The notes below the pieces were generated by a model that saw nothing but the letters and a program-made list of their open reading frames with translations, did no database searches and was not told the origin of the DNA. The position numbers and the translations under genes were made by a program. Source: Squalus acanthias (lineage: Eukaryota). From it: a stretch of DNA of 64,000 bases. The stretch is taken from assembly GCA_030390025.1 (NCBI GenBank), contig CM059432.1:496001-560000 (forward strand), in the 5' to 3' direction. This document shows, piece by piece, positions 4,252 through 63,330 of this stretch; positions within the stretch are counted from its first letter, which is position 1; each line of letters begins with the position of its first letter.

Positions 4252-4628
4252 CATTGCCTACAACCCTCCGAGATCTCTGCACTCCTCCAATTCTGGCCTC
4301 TTGCGAATCCCCCCTCTCCCTTCGCCGCACCATTGCTGGCTGTGCCTTCAGCTCTGGGCCTCGGCTCTGGACCCTCCCTAAACACGTTCGCTCCTGCACC
4401 TCTCTCTATTTTAAGACCCTCCTTAAAACCTACCTATTTAACCAACCTTCTAGTCACCCATCCTAATATCTCCTTTTTTGTCTCAGTGTCAGAATTTGTC
4501 TGATTATGCTCCTGTGAAACGCCTTGGGCCGTTATGCTACGTTAGATGCTGTATAAAATGCAGTGTGTTATAAATTTTGTAAGTTGATTACATTCAGTGG
4601 GAGAAAATTCAATACCTCTTGTGTGCAG

Positions 4629-7700: not shown

Positions 7701-10700
7701 TGTCATTTGCAATCCTGAAGCAGCATTTCAAATATTGAATAAATGATGTCTGCCATTATGGCAGCTAAGTTTTACAGTATGACTCTTTGGGTGACCAGAG
7801 GAATGTGGTTTATTGTAACTCTGTATTAATATTGTTTTACAAAGTTCCAGCAAGTATTACTAATGTCCTGTAAAGAAATTGAGACCATTTAGTTCCCTTA
7901 GAAAATGTGGACCATGTCCGGGGTTGGAATTCCAATTCATGTGCTCCATTGAAGCACTGAGCTGGGTTATCTTGGATTGATTCCTGGCTTTAATAGGCTT
8001 TTTTAAAAATTCACTCATGGGATGTAGGCGTTGTGGCAAAGCCAGCATTTATTGCCCATCCCTAATTGTCCTTGAGAAGGTGGTGGTGAGCCGCCGCCTT
8101 GAACCACTGCAGTCCGTGTGGTGAAGGTGCTCCCACAGTGCTGTTAGGGAGGGAGAGAGTTCCAGGATTTTGACGTAGCAACTATGAAGGATCGGCGATA
8201 TATTTCCAAGTCAGGGTGGTGTGTGACTTGGAGGGGAACTAGGAGGTGATGGTGTTCCCATGCGCCTGCTACCCTTGTCCTTCTAGATGGCAGAGGTCAC
8301 GGGTTTGGGAGATGCTGCCGAAGAAGCTTTGGTGAGTTGCTGCAGTGCATCTTGTAGATGGTACACACTGCAGCCACGGTACGCCGGTGGTGGAGGGAGT
8401 GAATGTTTAAGGTGGTGGATGGGGTGCCAATCAAGGGGCTGCTTTGTCCTGGATGGTGTCGAGCTGCTTCAGTGTTGTTGGAGCTGCACTCATCCAGGCA
8501 AGTGGAGAGTGTTCCATCACACAAAAAGAAAATACTGCAGATGCTGGAAATCTGAAATAAAAACAGAAAATGCTGGCGATACTCAGCAGGTCAGGCAGCA
8601 TCTGTGAAGAGAGAAACAGAGTTAATGTTTCAGGTCGATGACCTTTCGTCAGAACTGCAAAAAAGCAGGAAATGGAACAGATTTTTAAGCAAGTGTAGGG
8701 GTGTGGGAAATGGGGGAGGGGATGAAAGAACAAAAGGGAAGGTCTGTGATAGGATGGAAGGCAGGAGAGGTTGAGAGACATTAAGAGATAGTCAAGGCAA
8801 AAGGAGATGGTAATGGGACAGGTTAAGAAACAAAGGATAGCTCTAGATGAAGTGTAAATTGCGCTGGCAGAATGAAAGACAGCTGCCATGTGGGAGAGAA
8901 GAAAAGACACAAACAAAAAGTGTGGATAAAAAAAAATATATATGATAGGGGCCGAGGTTATGATCTGAAATTGTTGAACTCTATGTTGAGTCCAGAAGGC
9001 TGTAAAGGGGAGACCAAATGCAGATTGGGTGACCGCTTTGCGGAACGCCTCCGTTCAGTCCGTAAGGGGGACCCCGAGCTCCCGGTGGCCTGTCACTTTA
9101 ATTCTCCGCTCCACTCCCACTCAGACCTCACCGTCCTCGGCCTCTTGCATTGTTCCACGGAAGCTCAGCGTAAGCTCGAGGAACAGCACCTCATCTTTCG
9201 ATTAGGCACTTTACAGCCTTCTGGACTCAACATAGAGTTCAACAATTTCAGATCATAACCTCGGCCCCTATCACATTTTTTTATCCACACTTTTTGTTTG
9301 TGTCTGTTCTTCTCTCCCACATGGCAGCTGTCTTTCATTCTGCCAGCGCAATTCACACTTCATCCAGAGCCATCCTTTGTTCCTTAACCTGTCCCATTAC
9401 CATCTCCTTTTGCCTTGAATATCTCTTAATGTCTCTTAACTTCTCCTGCCTTCTATCCTATCACAGACCTTCCCTTTTGTTCTTTCATCCCCTCCCCCAT
9501 TTCCCACGCCCCTACACTTGCTTAAAAATCTGTTCCATTTCCTGTTTTTTTCCAGTTCTGACGAAAGGTCATCGACCTGAAACGTTAACTCTGTTTCTCT
9601 CTTCACAGATGCTGCCTGACCTGCTGAGTATCTCCAGCATTTACTGTTTTTGTTTTAGTATTCCATCACACTCCTGACTTGTGCCTTGTAGATGGTGGAG
9701 AGGCTTTGGGGAGTCAGGAGGTGAGACACTCGCCGTGAAATACTTCAGTACAATTACTGCTTGGAGTAACAAAACAGCCCCTGCAAATAAGACAACTGCC
9801 CTAAACGTATAGCGACAGAAATACTAAATTATTTAACATATATAAAATCGAAGTGAGTATTGACACCACTGTGTCAGCCAGTGAGTTGGAGGCGGGGCAG
9901 GACTTACGGCAGGACTCACAGCAAACAGTCTATTTAAGCAGAGTCTCTACGAACTGCAGCAAACAGAACTCATGACCCAAACTACAGCAAATCTCCTGAT
10001 AAAAGCGGGCTGATTTCTCCAGCAAAATACAGTGAGTGGAGGATGGTAATATAATACAAATGATGTGTGTAAAATCAGTCCCAGTCACCTTACAGCAGTG
10101 CGGCGTCCAGGCATGATTGACGGGGGAGTTACCCAATCATCTCCATTCTGCCCAGGACTTGTCACTGTTTGCAGCTATATAAAATATACAATGTATTATC
10201 GTTCGCTTTCTCTCTCTTTCCACTCAGTTTCTATTTCCTATGAGAATTACCGAATGGTGCATCCTTTTGAAGACAGTGAAAGCTCGGAGGATGAAGTTGA
10301 TTGGCAGGATACACGGCACGATCCCTATGGACCTGGTAATGTCTAACTTGATGCGACTGAGCTAACCGGATGTTTCCAAGCACGTTCGTTTAGTCCTGGC
10401 CTTCTGTGCTCTTTATGCATGAGCTGATTATTAAAGAAGACCAAGTCATCTCCACCTTGTTACTTGAAAAACGCTTATAATTGCTTGTGTATATTCAGAA
10501 AATCATAACTGTCTGGGTTTGATGGGAAGGAGAGAAAAATAGAGAATTATAAAATTTTACAGCAGCGAGTGAGGCCATTTTGCCCCATCACGGGCTAGTA
10601 ATCTAGAGGCCTGGAGTAATAATCATGAGAACATGAGTTCAAATCCCATCGTGACACTTTGATCATTTCAGTTCAGTTTTTTTATATTTAAAAAGAGAAG

Positions 10701-13700
10701 CTGGATATAAAAAGCTGGTATCGGTAAAAGTGACTCAGGATGTTGTAAAAACCCATCTGGTTCACTGATGTCCTTTTTAGGGAAGGAAACCTGCTGTCCT
10801 TACCCGGTCTGGGCCTATATGTGACTCCAGTCCCACATCAGTGTGGTCGACTCCAATGTTCCCTCTAAATTTTTTTTTGGGTGCGCGGTCCCTTTAACGG
10901 GCTGCGGGACCCATTCAAATTTCCACGCATGCGCGGTTTTTCCATTTAAAAGTCAGTGAGCCGGCCTGCATGGGACAGTTCCAGACTCTCCAGCCAGGGG
11001 GAAACAACCTCTCAGCATCTACCCTGTCAATCCCCCATGGAATCTTTATGTTTCAATGAGATCACCTCTCATTCTTCGAAACTCCAGAGTGTATAGGCCC
11101 AATCTACTCCATCTCTCCTCATAGGACAGCCCCCTCAGCCCGGGATGAGAGAGAATTTTCCTCCCTCCCCTCCCTTTGTTCTTACGCTGACTAGTTAGTC
11201 ACTGACTCTGTGATCAGTGGAAATAGTTTTTTCCCTATTTGTTATCAAAGCGCCTCATATTTTGAACACCTCGCTCAGATTCTCTTGCTCTCCTTTGCTG
11301 TCGTGTAAAAAGCTTCGTTTTCTCCAGTCTTTGCTCACAACTGAAGTCTCTCTTTAGTGAGTTTCTTCTGTACCCTCTCCCTGGCCGTGATGTACTTGAA
11401 GCAGGGTGCTGAAAATTGAACGCGGTATTCTAACTGGTCTAACGAATGATTTGTATAGGTTTAGAATTAGCTCTCTGTTTTTGTACTCTACCTTAAAACT
11501 TAAAATCCCATTTGCTTTATTTTTTTTTTAACAGCTTGTCCTGACATTTAAAGATTAGTGTACCTGAACTCCTCAGTCTCTCTGCTTCTGTGCTCATTTC
11601 TTTGCTCTGTTCTTAACAGTTGAGACACTTTTTAACAAATGGTTTACTTTTAGCATTTCAGCATCTTTTACTGATGTGCGATGTTCACTAATTTTGTCGG
11701 TAACATGACATCGATATATTTTTAAGCATCTAGGTTTGGAGAGAGCACAGAGGAGATTTACCAGAATGGTACCAGGGATGAGGAACTTCAGTTATGTGGA
11801 GAGACTGGAGAAGCTGGGATTGTTCTCCTTGGAGCAGAGAAGGTTAAGGGGAGATTTGATAGAGGTGTTCAAAATCATGAAGGGTTTTGATAAGAGTAAA
11901 TAAGGAGAAACTGTTTCCAGTGGCAGAAGGGTCGGTAACCAGAGGACACAGATTGAAGATAATTGGCAAAAGAACCAGAGGGAGAGATGAGAAATGTTTT
12001 TACCCAGTGAGTTGCTGTGATCTGGAATGCGCTGCCTGAAAGGGCGGTGGAAGCAGATTCAATAGTAACTTTCAAAAGAGAATTGGATAAATACTTGAAA
12101 AGGAAAAATTTGCTGGGCCCTGGGGAAAGAGTGGGGGAGTGGGACTAATTGAAGAGATCGTTCAAAGAGCCGGCACAAGCACAAGGGGCTGAATGGCCTC
12201 CTCCTGTGCTGTATGGTTCTGTTATTTCTCGGGCACTGTGCTACACATGGAGTGCATAAATAATCACCCTAGATCAGTGAATTCAAGCACTATCTGTTCA
12301 TATACTTCATTGCATGGAACAGAATCATAGAATAGTACAGCACAGAATGAAGAATATGGAATGAAACTCCTTGTGATATTTATCATTCCTTACTAATTTC
12401 AATTAATAGTAAAGAGCTGGTGATTGACGTACTGTAAGAACCTTTACACAAGTTGGATGTGTTACTATTTTGCTGCAAGAAGCTACAGAATAAGTGTTTT
12501 AGGTATTTTTTCTAATGTATCCTTAAGGTTTTGTCTAAAGTATCTTTAGTTTATCAATTAATTTTTCTAACACAAGTGTTGAAAATCTTCCTGTGTTGAC
12601 AGATAAACCTTTGACAAATCCAAGACGAGGATTTGTGGGAAAGGGCAAAGAGATCACCACCAAGCACGATGAGGTGATGTGCGGCAGAAGGAACACTGCT
12701 CGCATGGAAAATGTAAGCATTTGTCTTTTTATTAATGTTTTACTTGTCATTAGAAAAAGAAAGACATGCATTTCTGCAGCGCCTTTCACGACCACCGGGT
12801 GTCCCAAAGCGCTTTACAGCCAGTGAAGTACTTTTGAAGTCACTGTTGTAATACAGAAAACGCAGCAGCCAATTTTCGCACAGCAAGCTCTCGCAAACAG
12901 CAATGTGACAATGACCAGATAATCTGTTTTGATGATGTTGATTGAGAGATAAATATTGACCGAGGAGAACTCTCCTGCTCTTTGAAATAGTGCCATGGTA
13001 TCTTTTACGTCCACCTGGGAGAGCAGATGGGGCCTCGGTTTAACATCTCATCCAAAAGATGGCACCTCCGACAGTGCAGCACTCCCTCAGTACTGCCCCT
13101 CCGACAGTGCAGTACTCCCTCAGTACTGCCCCTCCGACAGTGCGGCCCTCCCTCAGTACTGCCCCTCCGACAGTGCGGCGCTCCCTCAGTACTGCCCCTC
13201 CGACAGTGTAGCCCTCCGACAGTGAGGCCCTCCGACAGTGAGGCCCTCCGACAGTGAGGCCCTCCCTCAGTACTGCACTGGAGTGTCAGCCTAGATTTTT
13301 GTGCTCAAGTCTCGAGTGGGATTTGAACACACAGCCTTCTGACTCGGAGGCGAGGATGCTATCAACTGAGCCACAGCTGATAAAAGTTTTTTTTTTGGGT
13401 GGGGTGGAGTATGGTTGTTGCTTTTTATATTCGATTAACTTCCTGTCTCTACTCTTGCAAAGTGTAAATGCAGAAAAAATAGATATTAACAAGTATATGG
13501 TATGTACTATACTGGAAAAAATAGATATTTGTATAGCATGCACTATGAAAAATGTGAAACTTGCAGCTAACCATTTGCTTATCTTTAATCTGTCAGTGAG
13601 AACTCTCAGCTTTTTTTAAAGGAAGGAAGGGGAGTTTCCATTCACTGAACTGTAAAGGAGATCACGTGCAGTCCGCTCTCCGGCTTTTCCATTGTAAATA

Positions 13701-25700: not shown

Positions 25701-28328
25701 CAACCCTCCGAGATCTCCGCGCTCCTCCAACTCTGGCCTCTTGAGCATCCCCGATTTTAATCGCTCCACCATTGGCGGCCGTGCCTTCAGCTGCCGAGGA
25801 CCGAACTTCCTGAATTCCCTCCCTAAACCTCTCCGCCTCTCTACCTCTCTCTCCTCCTTTCAGACGCTCCTTAAAACCTACCTCTTTGACCAAGCTTTTG
25901 GTCACCTGTCCTAATATCTCCTTACGTGCCTCGGTGTCGAATTTTGTTTGATAATCGCTCCTGTGAAGCGCCCTGGGACGTTTTACTGTCGGCGGGGCAG
26001 TACTGAGGGAGCGCTGCACTATTTCGAAGAGGAGCTGGGGAGTTCTCCCTGGTGCCAATATTTATCCCTCAACCAACACCTAAAAAGAAACAGATGATCT
26101 GGTCATTATCACATTGCTGTGTGTGGGAGCTTGCTGTGCGCAAATTGGCTGCCGCGTTTCCCACATTACAACAGTGACGACACTTCAAAAAGTACTTTGT
26201 TGGCTGTAAACCGCCACATAAATGCATGTCTGACTTATTTTTGAAATTGGTACTTTGGAAATTGATGGTGCGTGATTAACTCATGGTTTTCTTAAGCCAC
26301 ACATGTAGAGTGATCCTTTATGCTGTTCTCCTTATTGCAGTTCTTCCAGAAGTCGGGGGTTGCAGATGCAATGGGCGAACGGGAGCTTTTCAACGCAGTC
26401 TCTGGTTTAGGTATTACAGCGGATAACGAAGTGGACTTCATTGCTGAGGTATAACCTTCTCATGCAATAAAACATGGCTTGTGTTTAAAATCTCAGTGTT
26501 TTAAAGCGTCTTGAGACATTTAACTGCGTTAAAGGCGTTGCATGAATGCAGGTTGTTGAGGGCTCACTTTGTGAACATTTCATTGATTAAACCCGCAACC
26601 TAAACTGTATTTTCCAATAATAAGTATGCATGCGAGGGGAAAATTTAATTGAGCGGGCCAGAATGAAGCAACTCATTTGTTTTGTAGTCGCATAAAATCT
26701 TTTGATTATCTCAGATTATTTCTAGAAATTATTTTTTTTTTTTTTTTTTTTTAAAGAGAACTGCAAATCTGCCAGGCGCGGTTTAACGGACCTAGTTATT
26801 CTGGCTTTATGACAAAACGCAGTTTCAACTTTTATCAGTTGATTAACAAACATTCGGTTGAGAAAACGGCATTCAGTACTTTATGGTGCAAAATTTAAAA
26901 GCAGATTTACGTTGGAGAGAATCTTCTCCCCTAACCTTATTAAAAATGCAGAGGAGGGGGAAACAGCCAAGGTTCCTAGATATTAAGGGGAACAGATAGG
27001 GTAGATCGAGAGAAACTATTTCCACTGGTTGGGGATTCTAGGACTAGGGGGCGTAGTCTAAAAATTAGAGCCAGACCGTTCAGGAGTGAAATTAGGAAAC
27101 ACTTCTATACACAAAGGGTGGTAGAAGTTTGGAACAATTCCACAAACAGCAACTGATGCCAGATCAATTGTTAATTTAAAATCTGAGATTGATAGATTTC
27201 TGTTAACCAAAGGTATTCAGGCTGACACTCCCAGTGCAGTACTGAGGGAGCGCCGCACTGTCGGAGGGGCGGTACTGAGGGAGCGCTGCACTGTCGGAGG
27301 GGCAGTACTGAGGGAGCGCCGCACTCTAGATGGGGCAGTACTGAGGGAGCACTGTACTGTCGGAGGGGCAGTACTGAGGGAGGGCTGCACTGTCGGAGGG
27401 GCAATACTGAGGGAGCGCTGTACTTTCAGAGGGGCAGTACTGAGGGAGCACCGCACTGTAGATGGGGCAGTACTGAGGGAGCACTGCACTGTCGAAGGGG
27501 CAGTACTGAGGGAGCGCCGCACTGTCGGAGGGTCAGTACTGAGGGAGCGCCGCACTGTCGGAGGGTCAGTACTGAGGGAGTGCCGCACTGTTGGAGGGGC
27601 AGTACTGAGGGAGTGCCGCACTGTCGGAGGGGCAGTACTGAGGGAGCGCCGCACTGTCGGAGGGGCAGTACTGAGGGAGCGCTGCACTGTTGGAGGGGCA
27701 GTTCTGAGGGAGCACTGCACTGTCGGAGGGGCAGTTCTGAGGCAGCGCCGCACTGTTGGAGGCCTGGACTAATGATCCGGAGACATGAGATCAAATCCCA
27801 CCACGGCAGCTGAGAAATTTAAATTCAGTTAAATTAAATAAAAAGCGAGTGTTAGTAATGGTGACCACGAAATTACCGGATTGTTGTAAAAACCCAACTG
27901 GTTCACTAATGTCCTTTAGGGAAGGAAATCTGCCGCCCTTACCCGGTCTGGCCTATATGTGACTCCAGACCCACAGCAATGTGGTTGACTCTTAACTGCC
28001 CTCTGAAATGGCCGAGCAAGACACTCAGTTGTATCAAACCGCTTGGAAAGCCCTCACATCACAGACTCCAATGGTTCAAGGCGGCGGCTCACAACCACCC
28101 TCTCGAGGACAATGGAGGATGGGCAATAAATGCTTTCAATGAATAAAAAATTCAAGATGACTGCATTAATTTTAGTACGTCGTCTGCGCTAACGATGTAT
28201 TTGCCTTTTTTAAAAAATGTTTGTAGATCGAAGCTTTGGAGAAAATTAACGAAGACCACGTCCAACAGCGCGGGAAACACATGAAGATCGTGTACGATGA
28301 TTATGATGAAAGTCCAACAGACGATTAA
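4629..28328 (+). CDS. RIOK3: RIO kinase 3, multi-exon gene, 5'-partial (11 coding exons visible, equivalent to human exons 3-13)
   Basis: Exons 4629-4771, 10228-10335, 12603-12712, 14035-14178, 16407-16534, 18244-18426, 22415-22574, 23543-23623, 24265-24354, 26341-26448 and 28227-28328 have AG/GT boundaries and join in frame. They give the RIO kinase motifs [39 protein letters not shown] and WLIDVSQSV, plus the RIOK3-specific N-terminal [18 protein letters not shown]. Confidence 0.97.
4797..5707. repeat. 30-bp minisatellite, about 30 copies (TTCAGTGTCTGCCTGTGTCTCKGGTGTGGA)
   Basis: Clear 30-nt periodicity; one shortened unit near 5461-5478. Confidence 0.97.
5765..6110 (-). mobile_element. 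CR1 LINE 3' fragment
   Basis: [25 protein letters not shown] on the minus strand. Confidence 0.85.
6285..6590 (-). mobile_element. 3' fragment of second CR1-group LINE family (family B, same as 43655-46899)
   Basis: [41 protein letters not shown]. Confidence 0.85.
6806..6848 (+). ncRNA. Minimal type I hammerhead ribozyme motif (Penelope-type)
   Basis: cagggtt-CTGATGA-a-aggcc/atc/gacct-GAAA-c-GTT-aactctg: 7-bp stem I, stem II, palindromic AACGTT in place of stem III. Confidence 0.75.
7260..7472 (-). mobile_element. tRNA-derived V-domain SINE (HE1-like)
   Basis: A box ggtggcatagtgg, B box gggttcgaatc, V-domain tgtgtggagtttgcacattctccccgtgtctgcgtgggttttctccgggtgctccgg. Confidence 0.85.
8620..8657 (-). 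ncRNA. Hammerhead ribozyme motif in the inverted pLTR
   Basis: Reverse complement agtt-CTGACGA-a-aggtc/atc/gacct-GAAA-c-ATT-aact. Confidence 0.65.
9554..9590 (+). ncRNA. Hammerhead ribozyme motif in the pLTR
   Basis: agtt-CTGACGA-a-aggtc/atc/gacct-GAAA-c-GTT-aact. Confidence 0.75.
10228..10335 (+). CDS. RIOK3: RIOK3 exon: (V)[35 protein letters not shown]
   Basis: Polypyrimidine tract plus cactcag acceptor; G|gtaatg donor; in frame with neighbours. Confidence 0.95.
10592..10853 (+). mobile_element. tRNA-headed SINE fragment sharing its 5' region with the 43655-46899 LINE
   Basis: B box gagttcaaatccc; body aaaacccatctggttcact...gggaaggaaacctgc...gtgactccag. Confidence 0.75.
10854..10977. 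mobile_element. hAT-type MITE, truncated
   Basis: Starts caatgttccctctaaat; internal sequence shared with other copies. Confidence 0.7.
11735..12222 (+). mobile_element. CR1 LINE 3' fragment
   Basis: [48 protein letters not shown]. Confidence 0.88.
12603..12712 (+). CDS. RIOK3: RIOK3 exon: (D)[36 protein letters not shown]
   Basis: ttgacag acceptor, gtaagc donor. Confidence 0.95.
12760..13380 (-). mobile_element. tRNA-derived Deu-domain SINE (SacSINE1-like) with internal 33-bp expansion
   Basis: Deu-domain ggatgagatgttaaaccgaggcccc...ggacgtaaaagataccatggcactattt; A/B boxes at 13320-13380; array about 13068-13277. Confidence 0.85.
13793..13934. mobile_element. hAT-type MITE with 8-bp TSD, abutting a second truncated MITE (about 13660-13784)
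   Basis: caacgttccc...gagaacattg; flanks gataagac and gatgagac. Confidence 0.8.
14035..14178 (+). CDS. RIOK3: RIOK3 exon: [48 protein letters not shown]
   Basis: ccttttttag acceptor, gtatgt donor. Confidence 0.95.
14222..14710 (-). mobile_element. CR1 LINE 3' fragment
   Basis: ORF track 14440-14700 and 14231-14425. Confidence 0.88.
14995..15148. mobile_element. hAT-type MITE with 8-bp TSD
   Basis: cgatgttccc...gggagcattg; flanks cttgggaa and attgggaa. Confidence 0.8.
15430..15866 (-). mobile_element. CR1 LINE 3' fragment
   Basis: [10 protein letters not shown]...[20 protein letters not shown]. Confidence 0.85.
16407..16534 (+). CDS. RIOK3: RIOK3 exon: [42 protein letters not shown] (RIO P-loop)
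   Basis: tctcag acceptor, AG|gtatgt donor, STGKES motif. Confidence 0.96.
16580..17125 (+). mobile_element. CR1 LINE 3' fragment with nested SINE tail (about 16835-16945)
   Basis: [29 protein letters not shown]. Confidence 0.8.
17257..18051. mobile_element. Non-autonomous TIR element (PIF/Harbinger-like) with nested CR1 tail (about 17421-17560)
   Basis: ggcctggaatttgc ... caacttccgggcc imperfect TIRs; GC-rich ends and AT-rich centre. Confidence 0.5.
18244..18426 (+). CDS. RIOK3: RIOK3 exon: (S)[60 protein letters not shown]
   Basis: cttctgtag acceptor, AG|gtaggg donor, AIK catalytic lysine. Confidence 0.96.
19470..21048 (-). mobile_element. CR1 LINE, 5'-truncated, frameshifted RT
   Basis: [56 protein letters not shown]. 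Confidence 0.93.
21261..21672 (+). mobile_element. CR1-group family B 3' fragment
   Basis: [18 protein letters not shown]; tail gggatgggcaataaatgc. Confidence 0.85.
21926..22053. mobile_element. hAT-type MITE with 8-bp TSD inside an L2 3' fragment (about 21895-22372)
   Basis: caatgttccc...gggaacgttg; flanks ccgacaac and cctacaac. Confidence 0.85.
22415..22574 (+). CDS. RIOK3: RIOK3 exon: (R)[53 protein letters not shown]
   Basis: attctgcag acceptor, gtaagc donor. Confidence 0.96.
22698..23310. mobile_element. Non-autonomous PIF/Harbinger-like element with 3-bp TSD (ATC)
   Basis: atc|ggcccaaaatttgc ... gcaaaatacagccc|atc; internal hairpin 22884-22944. Confidence 0.6.
23543..23623 (+). CDS. 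RIOK3: RIOK3 exon: [27 protein letters not shown] (catalytic loop)
   Basis: tcttgcag acceptor, gtaaga donor. Confidence 0.96.
24265..24354 (+). CDS. RIOK3: RIOK3 exon: [30 protein letters not shown] (metal-binding loop)
   Basis: cttcacag acceptor, gtatgg donor. Confidence 0.96.
24427..25045 (-). mobile_element. CR1 LINE 3' fragment
   Basis: Same family as 5765-6110 and 53385-53917. Confidence 0.85.
25330..25985 (+). mobile_element. L2 3' fragment containing a MITE at 25454-25572 (TSD cccatcac/cccatcat)
   Basis: [23 protein letters not shown] | [18 protein letters not shown]. Confidence 0.85.
26341..26448 (+). CDS. RIOK3: RIOK3 exon: [36 protein letters not shown]
   Basis: cttattgcag acceptor, gtataa donor. 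Not in the ORF track; translated by hand. Confidence 0.95.
27236..27760 (+). repeat. 33-bp SINE-derived minisatellite (about 16 copies)
   Basis: GCAGTACTGAGGGAGCGCCGCACTGTCGGAGGG units. Confidence 0.93.
27759..28150 (+). mobile_element. SINE composed of the 5' head and 3' tail of the family B LINE
   Basis: Head/body matches the reverse complement of 46570-46865; joined to tail ggttcaaggcggcggctcac...gggcaataaatgc. Confidence 0.8.
28227..28328 (+). CDS. RIOK3: RIOK3 last coding exon: [33 protein letters not shown]
   Basis: tttgtag acceptor, TAA at 28326-28328. Confidence 0.94.
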   Translation: MEALEKINEDHVQQRGKHMKIVYDDYDESPTDD

Positions 28329-41200: not shown

Positions 41201-44200
41201 CCGCACTGTCGGAGGGGCAGTACTGAGGGAGAGCCGCACTGTCGGAGGGGCAGTACTGAGGGAGAGCCGCACTGTCGGAGGGGCAGTACTGAGGGAGCGC
41301 CGCACTGTCGGAGGAACAGTACTGCGGGAGTGCTGCACTGCCAGAGGGACAGTGCTGCGGGAGCACTGCACTGTTGGAGGGGCAGTACTGAGGGAGCACC
41401 GCACTGTCGGAGGGACAGTAACGAGGGAGCGCCGCACTGTCGGAGGGGCAGTACTAAGGGAGCACCACACTATTGGAGGGACAGTAACGAGGGAGCGCCG
41501 CACTGCCAGAGGGACAGTACTGAGGGAGCGCTTCCCTGTCGGAGGGACAGTACTGAGGGAGCGCTTCCCTGTCGGAGGGACAGTACTGAGGGAGCGCTTC
41601 CCTGTCGGAGGGACAGTACTGAGGGAGCGCTTCCCTGTCGGAGGGGCAGTACTGAGGGAGCGCTGCACTGTCGGAGGGACAGTACTGAGGGAGCGCTTCC
41701 CTGTCGGAGGGGCAGTACTGAGGGAGCGCTTCCCTGTCGGAGGGACAGTACTGAGGGAGCGCTTCCCTGTCGGAGGGACAGTACTGAGGGAGCGCTTCCC
41801 TGTCGGAGGGACAGTACTGAGGGAGCGCTTCCCTGTCGGAGGGACAGTACTGAGGGAGCACTGCACTGTCGGAGGGGCAGTACTGAGGGAGCGCTTCCCT
41901 GTCGGAGGGACAGTACTGAGGGAGCACTGCACTGTCGGAGGGGCAGTACTGAGGGAGCACTGCACTGTCGGAGGGGCAGTACTGAGGGAGTGCTGCTCTG
42001 TTGGAGATGCCATCTTTTGGATGAGATGTTAAACCAAGGCCCCATCTAACCTCTTGGGTGAACGTAAAAGATCCCATGGCACTATTTTGAAGAAGAGCAG
42101 GGGAGTTCTCCCCGGTGTCCTGGCCAATATTTATCCCTCAACCGACATCACTTTAAAAAAAAAAACAGATTATCTGGTCATTATCACATTGCTGTGGGTG
42201 GGATCTTGCTGTATGTAAATTGGCAGCTGTCTTTCCTACATTATAATTGTCATTACACTTCAAAAGTACCTAATTGGCTGTGAAGCGCTTTGGGATGTCC
42301 TGACATTGTGAAAGGCCCTGTAGTCTTTCATTCTCTTCTTTCTTAGTGCAACATAAGTAAAATTCAATCTCTCGGGTCGCAGTTCATGTTTGCCAAAGTT
42401 AGCCTCTGCCGCATATGTAGAAAGTGAACCGGTAGAAATTATAAGTTTCCAGCCTCCAAGTCTATAACTTGGCTGATAGAGACATACGACCTATTGGATT
42501 AGAGAATAGATCTTGTTTTAAAAAGTACATTTTCCATTTTCTTTTGATAGGTGTTTGCTGTTCGCTCTGGGGGAGCCACTGGTGTGGTGGTTAAAGGACC
42601 CGATGACAAGAGCTGCGTCTCCTTCAGGTAAAGCAATCGCGAAACCAGAGTGCAGATATTTAAGATCACACGTGCTGGAGACATCAAGTAGAAATTGGAA
42701 GGACATTTTATAAACACGTTCTCGCTCATCTTAACAAACAGGTCACAAAGACTTGATGTGTCATCATTAAAAACTAATCTTAAAAAGAACATCCTCTGGC
42801 TTTGCAAAATAATGTTGATGTGAGGTTATTCACCTTGTTAGGAAGAATAGAAAAACAAAATATTTTTTAAATGGTGAGAAACTATTAAGAACTGGGAGAA
42901 GTTAAGAGATTTAACAGTTTATAAGCAAGTACAGAACCAGGGAAAAGGCGGGGGGGTTGGGGGGCGGAGGGGAGGAAAGAACAAAGGGGGAAGGTCTGTG
43001 ATAGGTTGGAAGGCAGGAGAGATTAAATGCCAAAAGGGATGATGGTGCGAGGCAAAAGGAGGTGGTAATGGGACAAGTAAAGAATCAAAAGATGGAGCTG
43101 TAAATGGCAACAGCAGAACCGTTACCAGCACTTCGTTACTGTTCGAAATAAATGGGAGCAGTGGTTATGATCAATGTTCCCGCTAAGGTGCACCGCACGG
43201 CGCGGCCGCGCAGTAATCTGCTTTTACACTGTAAATACTGCGCATGCGCAGAAATTGAAAGGGACCGCGCATTAAAAGGAACAGGTCGTGCAGAACAAAG
43301 CGCAGCTCACGGACCATTGGGTATGATCTGTGTAAAGATATATCTCGTGTCTTTGTACAAAGTGGACCTGATTGGTGGTGAATTAGCTGTGAATACTTAA
43401 ACATTCTATATTCTTTTAAAACAGCCCGTCGTACCCCTGGCACCTGCACATCCAGCGAAGAAACTCACTGGTTCCTGATTGTGGTGGTGTATTGCCACAG
43501 GGCTGTGTGATAGTTCTTGACATGATAGTAACGGTTTAGTACCTTCCTTTAGAACCTTCATTTCCACTTTTTAACTCGAGCTATTAATAATAAAGAGAAG
43601 AGGTCTTGTTTTGATGATAAAATGTTTGCTGTGCGCAGATTGGCTGCCCCGTTTGTTTTTTAAAATTCGTTTATGGGATCTGGGCGTCGCTGGCAATGCC
43701 AGCATTTATTGCCCATCCCTAGTTGCCCTTGAGAAGGTGGTGGTGAGCCGCCTTCTTGAACCGCTGCAGTCCGTGTGGTGAAGGTGCTCCCACAGTGCTG
43801 TTCGGGAGGGAGTTCCAGGATTTTGACCCAGCGACGATGAAGGAACGACGATATACTTCTAAGTCAGGATGGTGTGTGACTTGGAGGGGAACTTGGAGGT
43901 GGTGGTGTTCCCATGCGCCTGCTGCCCTTGTCCTTCTAGCTGGAAGAGGTCGCAGGTTTGGGAGGTGCTGCCGAAGAAGCCTTGGCGAGTTGCTGCAGTG
44001 CATCTTGTAGATGGGACACACTGCAGCCACGGTACGCCGGTGGTGGAGGGAGTGAATGTTTAAGGTGGTGGATGGGGTGCCAATCAAGCGGGCTGCTTTG
44101 TCCTGGATGGGGTCAAAATTCTAGTGTTGTTGGAGCTGCACTCATCCAGGCAAGTGGAGAGTATTCCATCACACTCCTTACTTGTGCCTTGTAGATGGTG

Positions 44201-47200
44201 GAAAGGCTTTGAGGAGTCAGGAGGTGAGACACTCACCGCAGAATACCTAGCCTCTGACCTGCTCTTGTTGGTACAGTATTTATGTGGCTGGTCCAGTTAA
44301 GTTTCTGGTCAATGGTGACCCCCAGGATGTTGATAGTGGGGGATTCGGCGATGGTAATGCCATTGAATGTCAAGGGGAGGTGGTTAGACTCTCGCTTGTT
44401 GGAGATAGTCATTGCCTGGCATTTCTGTGGCGCGAATGTTACCTGCCACTTATCAGCCCAAGCCTTAACGTTGTCCAGGTCTTGTTGCATGCGGGCATGG
44501 ACTGCTTCATTATCTGTGGAGTTGTGAATGGCGCTGAACACTGTGCAGTCATTAGCGAACATCCCCATTTCTGACCTTATGTTGGAGGGAAGGTCATTGA
44601 TGAAGCAGCTGAAGATGGTTGGGCCTAGGACACTGCCCTGAGGAACTCCTGCAGCGATGTCCTGGGGCTGTGATGATTGACCTTCAACCACCACAACCAT
44701 CTTCCTTTGTGCTAGGTATGACTCCAGCCAGTGGAGCGTTTCCCCCCCGATTCCCATTGACTTCAGTTTTACTAGGGCTCCTTGATGCCACACTCGGTCA
44801 AATGCTGCCTTGATGTCAAGGACAGTCACTCTCCCCTCACCTCTAGAATTCAGCTCCTTTGTCCATGTTTGGACCAAGGCTGTAATGAGGTCCGGAGCCA
44901 AGTGGTCCTGGCGGAACCCAAACTGGGCATCAGTGAGCAGGTTATTGGTGAGTAAGTGCCGCTTGATAGCACTGTCGATGACACCTTCCATCACTTTTGC
45001 TGATGATTGAGAGTAGACTGATGGGGCGGTACTTGGCCGGGTTGTATTTGTCCTGCTTTTTGTGGACAGGACATACCTGGGCAGTTTTCCACATTGTCGG
45101 ATAGATGTCAGTGTTGTAGCTGTACTGGAACAGCTTGGCTAGTTCTGGAGCACAAGTCTTCAGCACAATAGCCGGGATGTTGTCGGGCCCATAGCCTTTG
45201 CTGTATCCAGTGCGCTCAGCCGTTTCTTGATATCACGTGGAGTGAATCGAATTGGCTGAAGACTGGCTTCTGTGATGGTGGGGACCTCGCGAGTAGGCCG
45301 ATATGGATCATCCACTCGGCACTTCTGGCTGAAGTTGGTTGCAAATACTTCAGCCTTGTCTTTTGCACTCACGTGCTGGGCACCACCATCATTGAGGATG
45401 GGGATATTCTTGGAGCCTCCTCCTCCCGTTAGTTGTTTAATAGTCCACCACCATTCATGACTGCAGAGCTTTGATCTGATCCGTTGATTGTGGGATCTCT
45501 TAGCCCTGTCTATAGCATGCTGCTTCCACTTTTTAGCATGCATGTAGTCCTGTGTTGCAGCTTCCCCAGGTTGGCACCTCATTTTTAGGTACGCCTGGTG
45601 CTGCTCCTGGCATGCTCATCTACACTCGTTGTTGAACCAGGGTTGGTCTCCTGGCTTGATGGTAATGGTAGAGTGAGGTATATGCCGGGCCATGAGGTTA
45701 CAGATTGTGGTGGAATACAATTCTGCTGCTGCCCCACAGCGCCTCATGGATGCCCAGTTTTGAGCTGTTAGATCTGTTCTGAATCTATCCCATTCAGCAC
45801 GGTGGTAGTGCCACACAACACGATGGAGGGTGTTCTCAGTGTGAAGACGAGACTTCGTCTCCACAATGACTCTGCGGTAGTCACTGCTGCCATGGACAGA
45901 TGCATCTGCAACAGGTAGATTGGTGAGGACAAGTAGGTTTTTCCCTCGAGTTGGTTCACTCACCACCTGTCGCAGGCCCAGACTGGCAGTTATGTCCTTC
46001 AGGACTCGGCCAGTAGTGGTGCTACCGAGCCACTCTTGGTGATGGACATTGAAGTCCCCCACCCAGAGTACATTCTGTGCCCTTGCTACTTTCAGTGCTT
46101 CTTCCAAGTGGTGTTCAACATGGAAGAGTACTGATTCATCAGCTGAGGGAGGGCAGTAGGTGGTAATCAGCTGGAGGTTTCCTTGCTCATGTTTGACCTG
46201 AAGCTATGAGACTTCATGGGGTCCGGAGTCAATGTTGAGGACTCCCAGGGCCACTCCTTCCCGACTGTATACCACTGTGCCACCACCCCTGGTGGGTCTG
46301 TCCTGCTGGTGGGACAGGACATACCCAGGGATGGTGATGGAGGAGTTCGGGACATTGGCTGAAAGGTATAATTCTGTGAGTATGACTATGTCAGGCTGTT
46401 GCTTGACTAGTCTGTGGGGCAGCTCTCCCAATTTTGGCACAAGTCCCCAGATGTTGGTGAGGAGGACTTTGCAGGGTTGACTGGGCTGGGTGTGCCGTTG
46501 CCGTGTCCGTAGCCGGTGCCGAGGTCGATGCCGGGTGGTCCGTCCGGTTTCATTCTTCTTTTGTTTCGTAGCGGTTAGTTACAACTGAGTGACTTGCTAG
46601 GCCATTTCAGAGGGCAGTTAAGAGTCAACCACATTGCTGTGGGTCTGGAGTCACATATAGGCCAGACCAGGTAAGGACGGCAGATTTCCTTCCCTAAAAG
46701 ACATTAGTGAACCAGATGGGTTTTTACGACAATCTGATAGTTTCATGGTCACCATTACTGATACTAGCTTTTTATTCCATATTTATTTAATTAACTGAAT
46801 TTAAATTCCCCAGCTGCCGTGGTGGGATTTGAACTCGCGTCTCTGGATCATTAGTCCAGGCCTCTGGATTACTAGCCCAGTAACATTACCACTACGCTAC
46901 CGTTTCCTACATTACAACAGTGACAACACTTCAAAAAGTACTTCATTGGCTGTAAAGCACTTTGGGACGTCCTGAGGTCGTGAAAGGCGCTGTAGAAATG
47001 CACTTTTTTTTCAGTAGCACGATGAGGGCAGTTTCATTCCTTTGGCAGGAGTGAATCAGGATTCTGTGGTAAAATGTATAATTTTTCTTGAATTGCTGTA
47101 TTTGATCTGAGCAGATGAATGCTTACTTTGCTTGTATGATGTTCCATTGTCCGTTATTCTAACACGGCCGTTTACGTGCATATTTTAAGTCAGTTCGTAC

Positions 47201-59200: not shown

Positions 59201-62200
59201 AAAGGGTGGTGGAGGCAGACTCAATCACAGCTTTCAAAAGGGAGTTGGATAAGTATCTGAAGGAAAAAAATTTGCAGGGCTACAGGGAAAGGGCGGGGGA
59301 GTGGGCCTAGCTGAAGTGCTCTTGCAGAGAGCCGGCACGAGCTCGACGGGCCGAATGACCTCCTTCCGTGCTGTAACCATTCTATGATCTCTCCTTTCTT
59401 TCCTTCTCCTTTCTTTCTCTCCTTTCTTCCTTCCACCTTCTGTATCAATCCCGTGCGCCAGTTTCTTTGATGTTACGGACTATATTTTGACAAGTGGAGG
59501 TTACGAACACCTTTCCTGTCTCCTTACTGCCCTGTTTGTGCTCAGAAGTTGGAAATAAAACTTCTGCTCCTCCCGCCCACTTATCGCTGCCTTTACAATA
59601 ACTCCCCTGCTCGTCTTCGAAATAGTTCCATGGGATCTTTTACATCCATCTGAGAGAGCAGACAGGGCCTCGGTTTAATGTCTCGGTACTGCACTGGGAG
59701 CGTCAGCCTAGCGTTTTGTGCTGAAGTCTCTGCAGCGGGACTTGAAACCACAACCTTCTGACTCAGAGGCGAGGGTGCTGCCCACTGAGCCACGGCTTCG
59801 TCAACACGGTTTCCAACCTCGCCTTGACTCACTTCCTGCTCCCGTCCACTTGGTTGGTGTAAGTCCTGAGCCACCATTTGAAACGCTATTTAAAGGAATC
59901 CTCAATTTCTCTCGTGTAAAGCACTATAGAGCTTTTGGACAAATTTTTTTTTATTCGTTCCTGGGATGTGGCAAGGCCGGCATTTATTGCCCATCCCTAA
60001 TCGCCCTCGAGGAGGTGGTGGTGAGCTGCCACCTTGAACCGCTGCAGTCCGTGTGGTGAAGGTGCTCCCACAGTGCTGTTAGGGAGGGAGTTCCAGGGTT
60101 TTGACCCAACGACGATGAAGGAACGGCCGATAAATGTCCCAAGTTGGGATGGCTTGCAGTAGCTTGTGGATTTTTTGATCTTGCAGGGTATGAAAGTGAT
60201 TTAATTGTATGTTCTGATCTGTTACGAGGCTTCTGGCATTGCAGTTATTCTCTTGGCGGGAGTCACTGGAGGAGGAGGAGGAACGGGAGGAACTGTCCAC
60301 CCTGGATTGTGACCTTGCAGTTTGTACTTTTTTATTCGCAGACATCTCTGATTTTTGACATAAAACTGCGAGCAGAATTTGATGGAACTGTCACGATTCA
60401 TCATCAAGTGCTTCCAGCTCTGTCCATTCACCCGTGCAAGATTCCTCGGGCAGGTGTGTAAATTCAGAAGAATATTGAGCACAAGTGAAATTCTGCATAA
60501 TTTGCTGCTGATGGCTTGATTAACACTTTCTATCATTTTAAAAAGAATCTTCTTCCTCCGCCCCCCCACTCCCCCCACAACTGAGCTGTTGGGTAAAGGC
60601 GCCAGCCGGAGTGGCATTGTGTTGTACAGATCAGATAATCCTGTGTTTGATTCCCAATCTGTGATGAGCTGGAGGAGCAATGGGGGTGTTACAGCTAGCT
60701 TCAGCCCCCGAGGGGAAAGCTATGCAGGATTCCAGCTTCCCATTACTCCAGTGACCCGTGCTGCATTGTGCGCGTGCACACGACACGTGAAGCGCAAGAT
60801 TGGCATCAGCTGTGATGCCCGCTGCGGTCTAATAGTCCGCACTGAATAACCTGCTAGCATTCACTCTCTTAAGTTCGCGCATGAAGAATGGTGACTCGGG
60901 TGAGGTAACAGACTGGCTGTTGCCTATATCTGTGACTTCCTCTGGCCTTGCAACCCTTCGTGATCTCAGCACTCCTCCAATTCTGGCCTCTTGAGCATTC
61001 CCTGATTTTAATCGCTCCACCATTGGTGGCCATGCCTTCAGCTGCCTGGGCCCTAAGCTCTGGAATTCCCTCCCTAAACCTCTCCGCCTCTCTACCTCTC
61101 TCTCCTCCTTTAAGACGCTCCTTAAAACCTACCTCTTTGACCAAGCTTTTGGTCACCTGTCCTAATATCTCCTTATGTGGCTCTCTGTCAAATTTTGTGT
61201 TTGATAATCGCTCCTGTGAAGCGCCTTGGGACGTTTTACTACGATAAAGGTGCTATATAAATCCAAGTTGTTGTTGTTGTTTGGAACCATGCCCTAAGAA
61301 TTGTTAAAATCCTGCATAAATCTTCTAAATAACATGAAAGATAGATTGCAGCCGGTTATTTGAGTTGCGATTGGTGTCAGTATATGGACAGTGTCAGTAC
61401 GCAGATAGTGACCTCTGACTCCTTTGATCTAGCTCTTGGAATCTAGGGTGAATTTTAACACCCATAAACGGGTGTGTTGGGGTCGGGTCAGATGTTAAAC
61501 TTTTAAAAATCTGAAACTCTACCCCAACCCACCCACTTCTGGGTTTAGCAGAGGTGGGTCGAGGGGCGGGCAACCAACCCGCTCCCAGGAGGCAGGTTGG
61601 CAATTTAAATATTTTGATGAGGCTGGCAGCCTCTGATTTAACCTGCTCTGCAGGTTTTATACTGTGGTGGTCGGGTTTTCCGGGAAACCTGGCAGCTGAT
61701 GTGAGGCGAGGATGGCTTCAGGGCGAAGGCAAGTGCTTTCACCGCACTGTTGGTAGGCCAGGAGGAGCAGGAGTGCTCTCCTCTGGCCTCCCAAGCTTCC
61801 TCCCCCGCCACCCCCCCCCCCCCATACAAAGACCACCGAGGTCGGGGATCAGACCTACCTGGTCCTGCGGTCTGCTCCGGAGACCTCCCCACCCAATTGG
61901 AAGCCAAGTCTCATCAGCCTGACTTCTGGGCAGGGAACCTGTCATGGACAAAAGTTGCACGCTGTGGCATTGAAAAACCACAGCATGCGAGGAACCCATC
62001 CAAAACTCTGCCTCTCTTTCTCTCCCCCCGCCTACATAACCCGCCCCTGTTGCTATCCAGGCCTATTATTCTGTTTATCTGACCACCAGTGTCTATTAAA
62101 GACCCAATGATTGGAACGATCCATTCATTATTATGCTGGTGATTTCATGTTTATTAGAAGATACAAGCAAGATCTGGACGACATTCTGGCTTGGGCTGAT

Positions 62201-63330
62201 AAGTGGCAGGTAACATTCGGGGCACACAAGTGCCAGGCAATGACTATCTCCAACAAGCGATCATCTAACCACTGCCCAATGACATTCAGTGGCATTGCCA
62301 TCGCTGAATCCCCACCATCAATATCCTGGGGGTCACCATTGACCAGAAACTTAACTGGACCAGCCACATAAATACTGTGGCAACAAGAGCAGGTCAGAGG
62401 CTGGGTATTCTGCGGCGAGTGTCTCACCTCCTGACTCCCCAAAATCTTTCCACCATCTACAAAGCACAAGTCAAGAGTGTGATGGAATACTCTCCACTTG
62501 CCTGGATGAGTGCAGCTCCAACAACACTCAAGAAGCTCGACACCATCCAAGACAAAGCAGCCCGCTTGATTGGCACCCCATCCACTACCTTAAACATTCA
62601 CTCCCTCCACCACCAGCGCACCGTGGCTGCAGTGTGTACCATCTACAAGATGCACTGTAGCAACTCGCCAAGGCTGCTTCGACAGCACCTCCCAAACCCG
62701 TGACCTCTAGCACCTAGAAGGACAAGGGCAGCAGGCGCATGGGAACACCACCACCTCCACGTTCCCCTCCAAGTCACACACCATCCTGACTTGGAAATAT
62801 ATCGGCCGTTTCTTCATCGTCGCTGGGTCAAAATCCTGGAACTCCCTCCCTAACAGCACTGTGGGAGCACCTTCACCACACGGACTGCAGCGGTTCAAGA
62901 AGGTGGCTCACCACCACCTTCTCAAGGGCAACTAGTGATGGGCAATAAATGCCGGCCTTGCCAGCGATGCCCACGTCCCAGGAACAAATAAAAAAATTAC
63001 AGCTCATAACTTGCTGTTTTTTAAAAAAAAACATTCTCCTCATCTCGCCTCTGGTTCTTTTGCCAATTATATTAATTCTGTTTCCTCTGGTTACCGACCC
63101 TCCTGCCACTGGAAACAGTTTCTCCTTATTTACTCTATCAAAATCCCATATAATTTAGAAAGTTTGCTGTGTTCATTTCATACTTGTTTTTTTTTCCTAA
63201 GTTAAATCCTGATGTAGAAACTATATCTCAGCAAGAGTTTAATTCCGTGTAATATTGTATTAATGTCTTGAAATTCTGTGTCCAGGTCCATCAGCTGTGA
63301 CAACACAAAGCCCTGTCCCTTGTGAACTTT
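35143..63330 (+). CDS. RMC1: Regulator of MON1-CCZ1 complex (C18orf8/MIC1), multi-exon gene, 3'-partial (exons 1-11 visible, 337 codons)
   Basis: Exons 35143-35250, 42551-42627, 52016-52100, 52198-52254, 52647-52733, 53207-53347, 57056-57159, 58078-58167, 58253-58358, 60342-60453 and 63286-63330 join in frame. The peptide [41 protein letters not shown] matches the vertebrate RMC1 N-terminus; the gene follows RIOK3 as in mammals. Confidence 0.96.
35330..37120 (-). mobile_element. RTE-clade LINE, 5'-truncated, with 528-aa open RT ORF
   Basis: [62 protein letters not shown], terminal CPTC zinc finger; 3' end gactgcctgagaagatgatg. Confidence 0.93.
37135..37335 (+). repeat. 33-bp SINE-derived minisatellite (about 6 copies)
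   Basis: GCAGTACTGAGGGAGCGCCGCACTGTCGGAAGG units. Confidence 0.9.
37400..37770 (-). mobile_element. Deu-domain SINE (SacSINE1-like)
   Basis: Reverse complement head tcagccgtggctcagtgggtagc...gtgggttccagtccc, plus Deu-domain. Confidence 0.85.
38530..39000 (+). mobile_element. CR1 LINE 3' fragment
   Basis: ORF track 38529-38924. Confidence 0.9.
39975..40440 (+). mobile_element. L2 3' fragment
   Basis: [33 protein letters not shown]. Confidence 0.85.
40987..42322 (+). mobile_element. Deu-domain SINE containing an approximately 900-bp 33-mer array (about 41086-41998)
   Basis: tRNA-like head 40987-41050, about 27 units, then Deu-domain and tail. Confidence 0.9.
42551..42627 (+). CDS. RMC1: RMC1 exon 2: [25 protein letters not shown](R)
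   Basis: ttttgatag acceptor, AG|gtaaag donor. Confidence 0.95.
43172..43319. mobile_element. hAT-type MITE with 8-bp TSD, inside a Penelope fragment (about 42890-43330)
   Basis: caatgttccc...ggaccattg; flanks gttatgat and ggtatgat. Confidence 0.8.
43655..46899 (-). mobile_element. Full-length CR1-group LINE (family B): tRNA-like head, APE endonuclease and RT (frameshifted), no ORF1
   Basis: [26 protein letters not shown] (APE); [39 protein letters not shown] (RT); ccgttt at 43649-43654 and 46900-46905. Confidence 0.88.
47338..48446 (+). mobile_element. Non-autonomous hAT (Charlie/Buster-type) transposon carrying a captured histone H2A gene 3' end
   Basis: Perfect 16-bp TIR CAGTGGCTCTCAAACT / AGTTTGAGAGCCACTG; TSD ttctagag / atctagag; transposase C-terminal remnant [17 protein letters not shown] at 48201-48264. 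Confidence 0.9.
47385..47586 (+). pseudogene. H2A: Replication-dependent histone H2A 3' fragment with stem-loop and histone downstream element
   Basis: [59 protein letters not shown] at 47547-47567; GAAGAGCTG at 47578-47586. Confidence 0.92.
48447..48920 (+). mobile_element. CR1 LINE 3' fragment (host of the hAT insertion)
   Basis: [37 protein letters not shown]. Confidence 0.85.
48916..49276 (+). mobile_element. Chimeric hammerhead/Penelope-fragment + CR1-tail element, copy B
   Basis: Colinear with 6763-7035 plus 7473-7583; hammerhead core CTGATGA 48971-48977 and GAAA 48992-48995. Confidence 0.65.
49373..50114. mobile_element. Non-autonomous PIF/Harbinger-like element with 3-bp TSD (ATT)
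   Basis: att|gggccgaaaattgatc ... gatcaatttctgggcc|att; internal perfect 18-bp hairpin at 49865-49903. Confidence 0.7.
50688..51100 (+). mobile_element. CR1 LINE 3' fragment
   Basis: [31 protein letters not shown]. Confidence 0.85.
52016..52100 (+). CDS. RMC1: RMC1 exon 3: [28 protein letters not shown]
   Basis: ctcaaag acceptor, gtaagg donor. Confidence 0.94.
52198..52254 (+). CDS. RMC1: RMC1 exon 4: [19 protein letters not shown]
   Basis: ttttgcag acceptor after a 97-nt intron, gtaata donor. Confidence 0.94.
52647..52733 (+). CDS. RMC1: RMC1 exon 5: [29 protein letters not shown]
   Basis: caccgtag acceptor, gtaggc donor. Confidence 0.95.
53207..53347 (+). CDS. RMC1: RMC1 exon 6: [47 protein letters not shown]
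   Basis: ttcccag acceptor, gtaagt donor. Confidence 0.95.
53385..55362 (+). mobile_element. Cluster: CR1 (53385-53917), Deu-domain SINE (53918-54330), CR1 RT fragment (54330-55362)
   Basis: [30 protein letters not shown] with a single unexpanded 33-bp unit. Confidence 0.88.
56076..56836 (-). repeat. CR1 3' tail with a 33-bp minisatellite (about 17 copies, 56271-56836) grown from its ORF2 end
   Basis: GCCCTCTGGGGAGGAGAATTCCAGAGATTCACA units, translating to [11 protein letters not shown] repeats. Confidence 0.93.
57056..57159 (+). CDS. RMC1: RMC1 exon 7: [34 protein letters not shown](I)
   Basis: ctttccag acceptor, AT|gtaagt donor. Confidence 0.95.
57383..57561. mobile_element. hAT-type MITE with 8-bp TSD inside an L2 3' fragment (about 57300-57886)
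   Basis: cagtgttctc...gggagcattg; flanks cccacaac and cccgcaac. Confidence 0.8.
58078..58167 (+). CDS. RMC1: RMC1 exon 8: [29 protein letters not shown](R)
   Basis: ttcgcaag acceptor, AG|gtaaga donor. Confidence 0.94.
58253..58358 (+). CDS. RMC1: RMC1 exon 9: [35 protein letters not shown]
   Basis: attgcag acceptor after an 85-nt intron, gtaagg donor. Confidence 0.95.
58560..59388 (+). mobile_element. CR1 LINE 3' portion
   Basis: ORF track 58738-59310; same subfamily as 2999-4251. Confidence 0.9.
60342..60453 (+). CDS. RMC1: RMC1 exon 10: [37 protein letters not shown](G)
   Basis: tattcgcag acceptor, G|gtgtgt donor. Confidence 0.94.
60920..61280 (+). mobile_element. L2 3' fragment
   Basis: Tail ending gctatataaatccaa(gtt)n. 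Confidence 0.85.
62160..62995 (+). mobile_element. CR1-group family B 3' portion
   Basis: [33 protein letters not shown]. Confidence 0.9.
63286..63330 (+). CDS. RMC1: RMC1 exon 11: (G)[14 protein letters not shown](Y)
   Basis: gtgtccag acceptor; followed by GTATCCTTC (U12-type donor). Confidence 0.9.

Follow-up and report, generated by a model that had tools for sequence, protein, structure and literature searches.

A tRNA-like head on the elasmobranch Zenon LINE, and a candidate polymerase III-driven element with an AUG-independent translation start

Long interspersed elements (LINEs) are held to be transcripts of RNA polymerase II (Pol II), and short interspersed elements (SINEs) to be non-coding transcripts of RNA polymerase III (Pol III). 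In this report, we analyze a 64,000-nt stretch of the Squalus acanthias genome (GCA_030390025.1, contig CM059432.1, positions 496,001 to 560,000; hereafter the window, in which all coordinates are counted) and, on its minus strand at 43655..~46907, a Zenon LINE that begins with a tRNA-derived, SINE-like head. The Zenon family has been described recently: Stuart et al. 2026 (PMC13343379) give seven elasmobranch consensuses of 2886 to 3314 nt in their Supplementary Table 2, state that Zenon and Rex1 elements universally lack a first open reading frame (ORF1) and that Zenon has a poly-A tail, and attribute to Zenon 4.4% of the spiny dogfish genome and 6.8% of that of the white shark (their Supplementary Table 4).

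The family and its absence of ORF1 are already known, while its tRNA-Thr-like head with A and B boxes goes unremarked in that paper. Indeed, the words 'tRNA' and 'promoter' do not occur in its main text, 'SINE' occurs once, in the reference list, and the main text contains no discussion of the head, of the missing AUG or of derived SINEs. These three features are what we add to the published family. Our searches of the open-licence PMC and bioRxiv literature turned up neither the Zenon head nor any tRNA-headed autonomous LINE, although an annotation in Repbase, Dfam or SINEBase may exist. An earlier, sequence-only reading of the window had regarded the lack of ORF1 as unusual, a premise that the published description of Zenon and Rex1 removes. 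It had also considered that the architecture might belong to an already annotated family; a family consensus, head included, is indeed present in the supplement of PMC13343379, but the head is not remarked on there as tRNA-like.

The tRNA-like head is part of a family-wide unit

From about 46907 down to 43655, the element consists of a tRNA-like head, a 240-nt body, remnants of an endonuclease and a reverse transcriptase (RT), and an A tail. About 388 of its first 400 nt are identical to the SquAca_Zenon-1 consensus (about 12 differences, or about 97%, counted by eye over the 400 nt visible), by which we identify it as an elasmobranch Zenon LINE, full-length but decayed. APE endonuclease and RT remnants in one ORF2, the absence of ORF1 and the A tail are features of Zenon (CR1 group), and the length of 3.2-3.3 kb, the missing ORF1 and the poly-A tail are shared with the elasmobranch Zenon of PMC13343379. 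In a quick tree, the RT falls within a 15-row clade of single-ORF elements (Shimodaira-Hasegawa-like approximate likelihood ratio test, 97), apart from the CR1-type pieces of the window (99); as this tree has no named reference, the name Zenon rests on the 5' identity to the published consensus.

The head is of the tRNA-derived SINE (SINE2) type, its 5' end carrying A and B boxes spaced as in a tRNA. Matched to consensuses that we take to be the usual ones, the A box (TAGCGTAGTGG) lies at 46899-46889 and the B box (AGTTCAAATCC) at 46835-46825, both on the minus strand; the anticodon loop is at 46875-46869, and the variable arm carries an extra hairpin. This pair of boxes, already noticed in the sequence-only reading, is the sole one on both strands of the 64 kb, and it arose in none of 1000 dinucleotide shuffles of the region. 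ARAGORN called nothing at the head at default settings; at a 90% threshold it called a tRNA-Thr(AGT) at 46903-46815, a call absent from all 1000 shuffles and accompanied by three others in the window. The Rfam tRNA model gave 16.2 bits for a gathering score of 29. A score below gathering and a call at the relaxed threshold only are to be expected of a SINE head. The variable arm (46859-46843, minus strand) resembles a duplicate of the anticodon arm, in a 21-bp tandem; other species have a hairpin there, of different sequence. A MetaSINE head, in which a 66-bp Meta domain follows the tRNA part, was rejected, no likeness by eye being found to the BivaMeta and BivaMD sequences compared from the supplement of PMC4824008.

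The head opens all seven elasmobranch consensuses (SquAca_Zenon-1, -2 and -3, CarCar, RhiTyp, ScyCan and HypSab_Zenon-1), and in each a B box, as well as an A box close to the 5' end, is recognisable by eye; the hagfish and coelacanth consensuses, three in all, do not start with it (first 400 nt of each; PMC13343379). Sequencing runs gave a concordant picture. At least half of the words of a 1-kb probe covering head and APE were present in 17 of the 24 runs listed, from organisms A-G. At 46901-46904, at least 716 contigs in run X1 (232, 270 and 214) and at least 326 in run X7 have loose ends, leading into flanks of low agreement (0.38-0.40), and no sequence upstream of the head is shared among the loose ends listed for these two runs; such loose-end and contig counts are lower bounds among the rows listed, especially for X1. 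Contigs bridging body and APE were found in X1, X7 and two presumed RNA runs. Summed depth in run X3 was 0.57-1.25 million over head and APE versus 11-38 in unique flanks, which is not a copy number, and depth falls over the A-rich linker, a region where copies diverge. We gave no weight to the excess of body over APE depth in the presumed RNA runs, as contig depth cannot rank expression, nor to a word share of 12% in two metatranscriptomes.

Head and ORF2 are therefore a single family-wide unit with a sharp 5' end. The junction between them, for which the sequence-only reading had considered uniqueness to this locus, recurs in bridging contigs of several organisms, and the head is on seven of seven consensuses; the claim that head and ORF2 moved as one agrees both with this unit and with the single insertion into a SINE tail at this locus. 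Among 79 metagenome loci of relatives, we found no head-like sequence (blastn at E<=1 gave only chance matches of 13-23 nt) and no A/B pair, and ARAGORN at relaxed settings made no more calls than in the background. Viral and prokaryotic genome contigs contained no exact match to a 26-nt pattern of the head, and protein scans of them returned no relative.

Contigs join head to tail at 43754>46580, 43782>46566, 43785>46568 and 43811>46574, among other joints. Since several are distinct, short SINEs were born more than once, by internal deletion, as had been proposed for the acquisition of a LINE tail by a SINE. That proposal had been offered as one of two alternatives, the other being an autonomous element driven from a tRNA-type promoter; with one head-ORF2 family and SINEs arising from it by internal deletion, both would be true together, the promoter role of the head being predicted only. 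Two local pieces cited in the sequence-only reading need amendment. The SINE at 27759-28150 does carry head and LINE tail, but the two are not directly joined: about 20 unrelated nt separate them, the A box is absent and the B box altered. The head fragment reported at 10592-10853 is present and somewhat longer (Table 1), also lacking the A box. In X1 and X7, contigs running from the body into the A run at 46580 suggest either head-only, A-tailed SINEs or a linker that is itself a relic SINE tail.

Transcription and translation of the headed element

The best reading of these features, which on balance we think probable from the sequence, is an autonomous LINE driven by Pol III whose translation starts independently of an AUG. 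A tRNA-headed SINE would have joined the Zenon ORF2 in an elasmobranch ancestor, replacing the old leader and its AUG. TFIIIC and Pol III would read a 3.3-kb RNA from the head, through a strand without internal TTTT, and this uncapped RNA would recruit ribosomes via the 150-nt leader, most specifically via a pseudoknot that resembles anticodon-codon pairing and ends at GCT 46572-46570. Once bound to the 3' hairpin, ORF2p would insert the element by target-primed reverse transcription. As the head already contains the promoter, internal deletions would yield ready-made SINEs.

For transcription, a Pol III origin is suggested by the conservation of A and B boxes in sharks and a ray, and by the coincidence of the 5' end with the tRNA start. 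The distribution of TTTT is consistent with it, the family strand having no internal run, in contrast to invertebrate relatives. This copy has three such runs, none longer. At the two internal ones other copies read differently, and the last is next to the tail; at five of nine Zenon 3' ends (43662-43669, 8000, 21674, 6282 and 30131), a T4-T5 run that may represent tail decay or a terminator immediately precedes the A tail, downstream of both AATAAA and the hairpin. Zenon pieces of the window contain two TTTT in 6001 nt versus 29 in 8592 nt of CR1-type pieces. At least three were found in every one of the 51 loci with a long ORF, out of 79, and the three RT-clade members compared at the DNA level (L003, L008 and L012) have 10-17, and no A/B pair.

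For translation, no in-frame AUG of ORF2 occurs from 46578 until 45747, past the endonuclease, and L003, L008 and L012, which lack the head, have a Met at most 13 residues from the ORF start. The leader at 46570..46720 is predicted to form a long stem with an internal loop. Near its 3' end, the triplet GCT at 46572-46570 lies in the ORF2 frame and is complementary to the hairpin loop 46600-46594. By eye, the distance from GCT to the next conserved ORF2 codon is 15, 18, 18, 18 and 15 nt in the window, CarCar, ScyCan, HypSab and RhiTyp, respectively, and pairing is possible with GCT in frame in five of six usable sequences, SquAca_Zenon-2 and -3 being set aside from the frame comparison as gappy. 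The spacer just upstream of GCT is 7 or 8 nt long, with an in-frame stop two codons before GCT in this copy, and one pair of the hairpin stem varies by eye between A-U, G-U and G-C among species.

Several observations weigh against this reading. In SquAca_Zenon-1, 17 nt follow GCT, which is out of frame. The leader is no more stable than its shuffles (z -0.02; z 0.62 for the SINE copy), Rfam gave no matching internal ribosome entry site (IRES) at E<=10, and no convincing pseudoknot II or III (PKII, PKIII) was found in the leader. The hairpin is one of two near-equal predicted folds of the isolated leader domain, and when the whole leader is folded, the A box (46900-46888) is predicted to pair with 46575-46563 (minus strand; p ~1.0), closing a 340-nt leader. 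The conservation around GCT could stem from this pairing, with no need for a pseudoknot. Several AUGs lie upstream in the leader, in addition to the out-of-frame AUG at 46553. As for transcription, TTTT scarcity is not significant on so T-poor a strand: synonymous shuffles have a mean of 2.2, with P(0)=0.08 and P(<=1)=0.34, a Markov model expects a mean of 1.9, and an RTE piece of the same window has no TTTT in 1626 nt. AATAAA and a poly-A tail suit Pol II equally well, and contigs cannot show transcript start, cap state, polymerase or protein. The strongest version, a LINE wholly without Pol II, cap and AUG, combining a tRNA-type Pol III promoter with a factor-free, dicistrovirus-type pseudoknot IRES for ORF2, we consider unlikely on these sequences.

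It is conceivable that the captured SINE head is an ordinary 5' untranslated region (UTR) of a capped Pol II transcript, made from an internal body promoter or by host read-through, with ORF2 translated by reinitiation or from a near-cognate start. AATAAA lies 45 nt before the poly-A tail, LINEs are generally Pol II transcripts (PMC5786205), foreign promoters can be co-opted by mammalian L1 (PMC13174262), and the local RTE piece is equally poor in TTTT. Such a transcript is hard to reconcile with A and B boxes kept in all seven shark and ray consensuses and a 5' end at the tRNA start, and many upstream AUGs with no in-frame one are ill-suited to cap-dependent scanning. We regard it as a serious but doubtful explanation.

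Transcription by Pol III might also be combined with translation from the AUG at 46553, followed by a -1 frameshift or reinitiation into ORF2, dispensing with an IRES-like pseudoknot. This AUG is present in six of the seven consensuses as well as in the window, and it follows an A-rich stretch, the place where the relative L003 has its in-frame AUG. However, no canonical slippery heptamer was seen by eye upstream of the APE start, and the extension in the ORF2 frame is rich in Arg, as N-termini of relatives are; moreover, the G of the AUG (46551) is replaced in 46-90% of the aligned depth in four runs, where depth is low and alignment uncertain. This route appears quite improbable to us. The invertebrate Zenon-like leader of L003 (L003:300-345) shares with the hagfish EptBur_Zenon-1 leader a short motif and an A run before the ORF.

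That headed copies form a secondary or non-autonomous subfamily, in which a SINE fused to a 5'-truncated LINE is mobilised in trans by a headless master possessing a leader or ORF1 of its own, is highly improbable. At least 326 contigs in X1 and 392 in X7 do run from the body into the A-rich stretch at 46580, which is what an independent, A-tailed SINE would show, and the published table has few intact ORF2 copies (3/612, 1/1419 and 0/2313; PMC13343379), but the head is on every elasmobranch consensus, and the loose ends listed reveal no other sequence upstream of APE. Finally, a one-off chimera at this locus, by template switch or nested insertion, which the single headed full-length copy in the window might suggest, is ruled out, as the published consensuses represent five species and bridging contigs come from several organisms.

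The copy in the window and its surroundings

Stops and frameshifts interrupt the APE and RT remnants of this copy; at these positions most other copies read differently, and the damage is therefore private to it. The APE endonuclease, RT and 3' tail recognised in the sequence-only reading were recovered as Pfam matches and an A tail (Table 1), whereas its spacer of about 100 bp turned out to be mostly an Arg-rich N-terminal extension in the ORF2 frame. The 3' end (43655-43780) folds more stably than its shuffles (z -2.95; none of 200 equally stable). Protein searches returned no full-length shark ORF2p: the close matches are short pieces of decayed copies, whose first Met arises from differing chance frameshifts, and the closest named protein match is a Heterodontus gene model (68%). 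Two shark-like gene models (P0007 and P0121) incorporate RT or APE frame pieces of this LINE and are likely annotation artefacts.

The element sits in the tail of another SINE, presumably Deu/SacSINE1, and its insertion produced a 5-6 bp duplication with microhomology at the 5' junction, as the 5' CCGTTT overlaps the first bases of the element itself. Other copies of the host SINE tail in the window, which are not split, have the CCGTTT site once, in agreement with the split that had been described. Two details of that split need correction: the 5' copy overlaps the first bases of the element (a 7-of-8 match to the published consensus start), and the left host part is only 29 bp long.

Table 1. 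Coordinates of the Zenon element, of its insertion site and of related pieces in the window
Feature	Position	Strand	Remarks
tRNA-derived head, Thr-AGT-like	46815..46907	-	A/B boxes, ARAGORN; family 5' end at ~46907
AT-rich portion of SINE-like body	46721..46814	-	differs between species (consensus comparison)
150-nt leader domain	46570..46720	-	near-invariant between shark and ray (by-eye comparison); candidate ribosome-entry element
Candidate anticodon-mimic hairpin	46585..46610	-	7-nt loop 46600-46594 could pair with GCT 46572-46570 in a putative pseudoknot
A-rich linker	46555..46569	-	15 nt; four consensuses have 15 or 18 nt and one has 17 nt
Out-of-frame AUG and overlapping 48-codon short ORF	46407..46553	-	ORF2 is in its -1 frame
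ORF2, basic N-terminal extension and APE	45616..46578	-	one in-frame stop here; PF03372 and PF14529 matches
ORF2, linker and RT	44233..45615	-	PF00078, E 9e-32; frameshifted in this copy
ORF2, C-terminal region up to stop codon	43719..44232	-	
3' UTR	43655..43718	-	AATAAA 43710-43705, hairpin 43703-43689, a T4 run at 43665 and a short A tail
Target-site duplication, 3' side of element	43649..43654	+	CCGTTT
Target-site duplication, 5' side	46900..46905	+	CCGTTT; overlaps first bases of element
Host SINE tail, left remnant	43626..43654	+	29 bp
Host SINE tail, right part	46901..47011	+	
5'-truncated head-plus-tail SINE	27759..28150	+	internal-deletion derivative; 88% to head, 80% to tail
Older head fragment	10592..10869	+	76% identity; A box and tail absent
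Longest of nine additional Zenon pieces, 5'-truncated or partial	62168..62995	+	
Other Zenon pieces	8000-8522, 21259-21674, 6282-6593, 19213-19469, 29954-30131, 59969-60152, 39386-39568, 9657-9743		

The window contains further repeats and gene-like pieces. Long fragments of canonical CR1-type LINEs lie at 3083-4517, 19570-21133, 54268-55254 and 58554-59301, and a nearly open RT frame of 1.6 kb at 35603-37228 (minus strand), which we take from its motifs to belong to the RTE clade, has no TTTT on its coding strand and is the outgroup in the quick tree. Arrays of a 33-bp unit, of up to 28 units, occur within SINE copies (27236-27762, 41087-42006, 37135-37335, 13065-13265 and 30949-31046). Minisatellites are found at 4802-5705 (30-bp x 30.5) and 56269-56838 (33-bp x 17.3), the latter giving relaxed ARAGORN calls. 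A C-terminal fragment of histone H2A (PF16211) at 47328-47531 (plus strand) is apparently a decayed pseudogene piece, and a short exon-like stretch at 28225-28330 (plus strand) follows a possible splice acceptor and ends in a stop.

Comparison with known systems

If the Pol III-driven, AUG-independent reading is true, Zenon would provide a natural protein-coding Pol III RNA, from a family that fills 4-7% of some shark genomes. In the strongest version, which we consider unlikely, it would also have the first IRES of this type in a vertebrate genome; the conserved SINE body would gain a function, and the LINE would be the direct parent of its SINEs. Zenon joins three questions, namely the translation of ORF2 in non-LTR elements, the role of conserved SINE bodies and the birth of SINEs.

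IRESs of this sort have been raised for non-LTR elements as a possibility only (PMC3894237). Like the type 6 IRESs of dicistrovirus intergenic regions, as described in PMC10516663, PMC10275262 and PMC12221177, the Zenon leader is about 150 nt long and lacks an AUG, and its 3' hairpin, whose anticodon-like loop could pair with an in-frame triplet, would have the layout of pseudoknot I. UAAUG and GCCUA flank its predicted internal loop and are similar to two motifs of PMC10275262, U[G/A]A[U/C]C and UGCUA, a likeness noticed post hoc. Unlike these IRESs, the leader has no Rfam match, no nested PKII/PKIII was found in it, and its proposed pseudoknot comprises just 3-4 bp.

Regarding the birth of SINEs, Zenon LINEs of Lepidoptera also yield short elements by repeated internal deletion, at microhomologies (the SIDE Persaeus; PMC6740152). 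The Persaeus elements are described there as having neither tRNA homology nor a Pol III promoter, whereas the shark deletion products are structurally tRNA SINEs. The combination of a tRNA head with a LINE tail is also known from bivalve tRNA SINEs with CR1-Zenon tails (PMC11481361), where the partner is likewise Zenon, and from bipartite-LINE SINEs (PMC5786205); in these systems, as reported, the head is on the non-autonomous partner only, while in shark Zenon it is on the protein-coding element. Mammalian RNA/LINE-1 chimeras (PMC13174262) also place a small-RNA sequence on the 5' side of a LINE within one insertion. Those described are for the most part isolated, dead insertions that carry antisense tRNA halves, whereas in Zenon a whole-tRNA head in sense orientation is fixed across a family with thousands of full-length copies.

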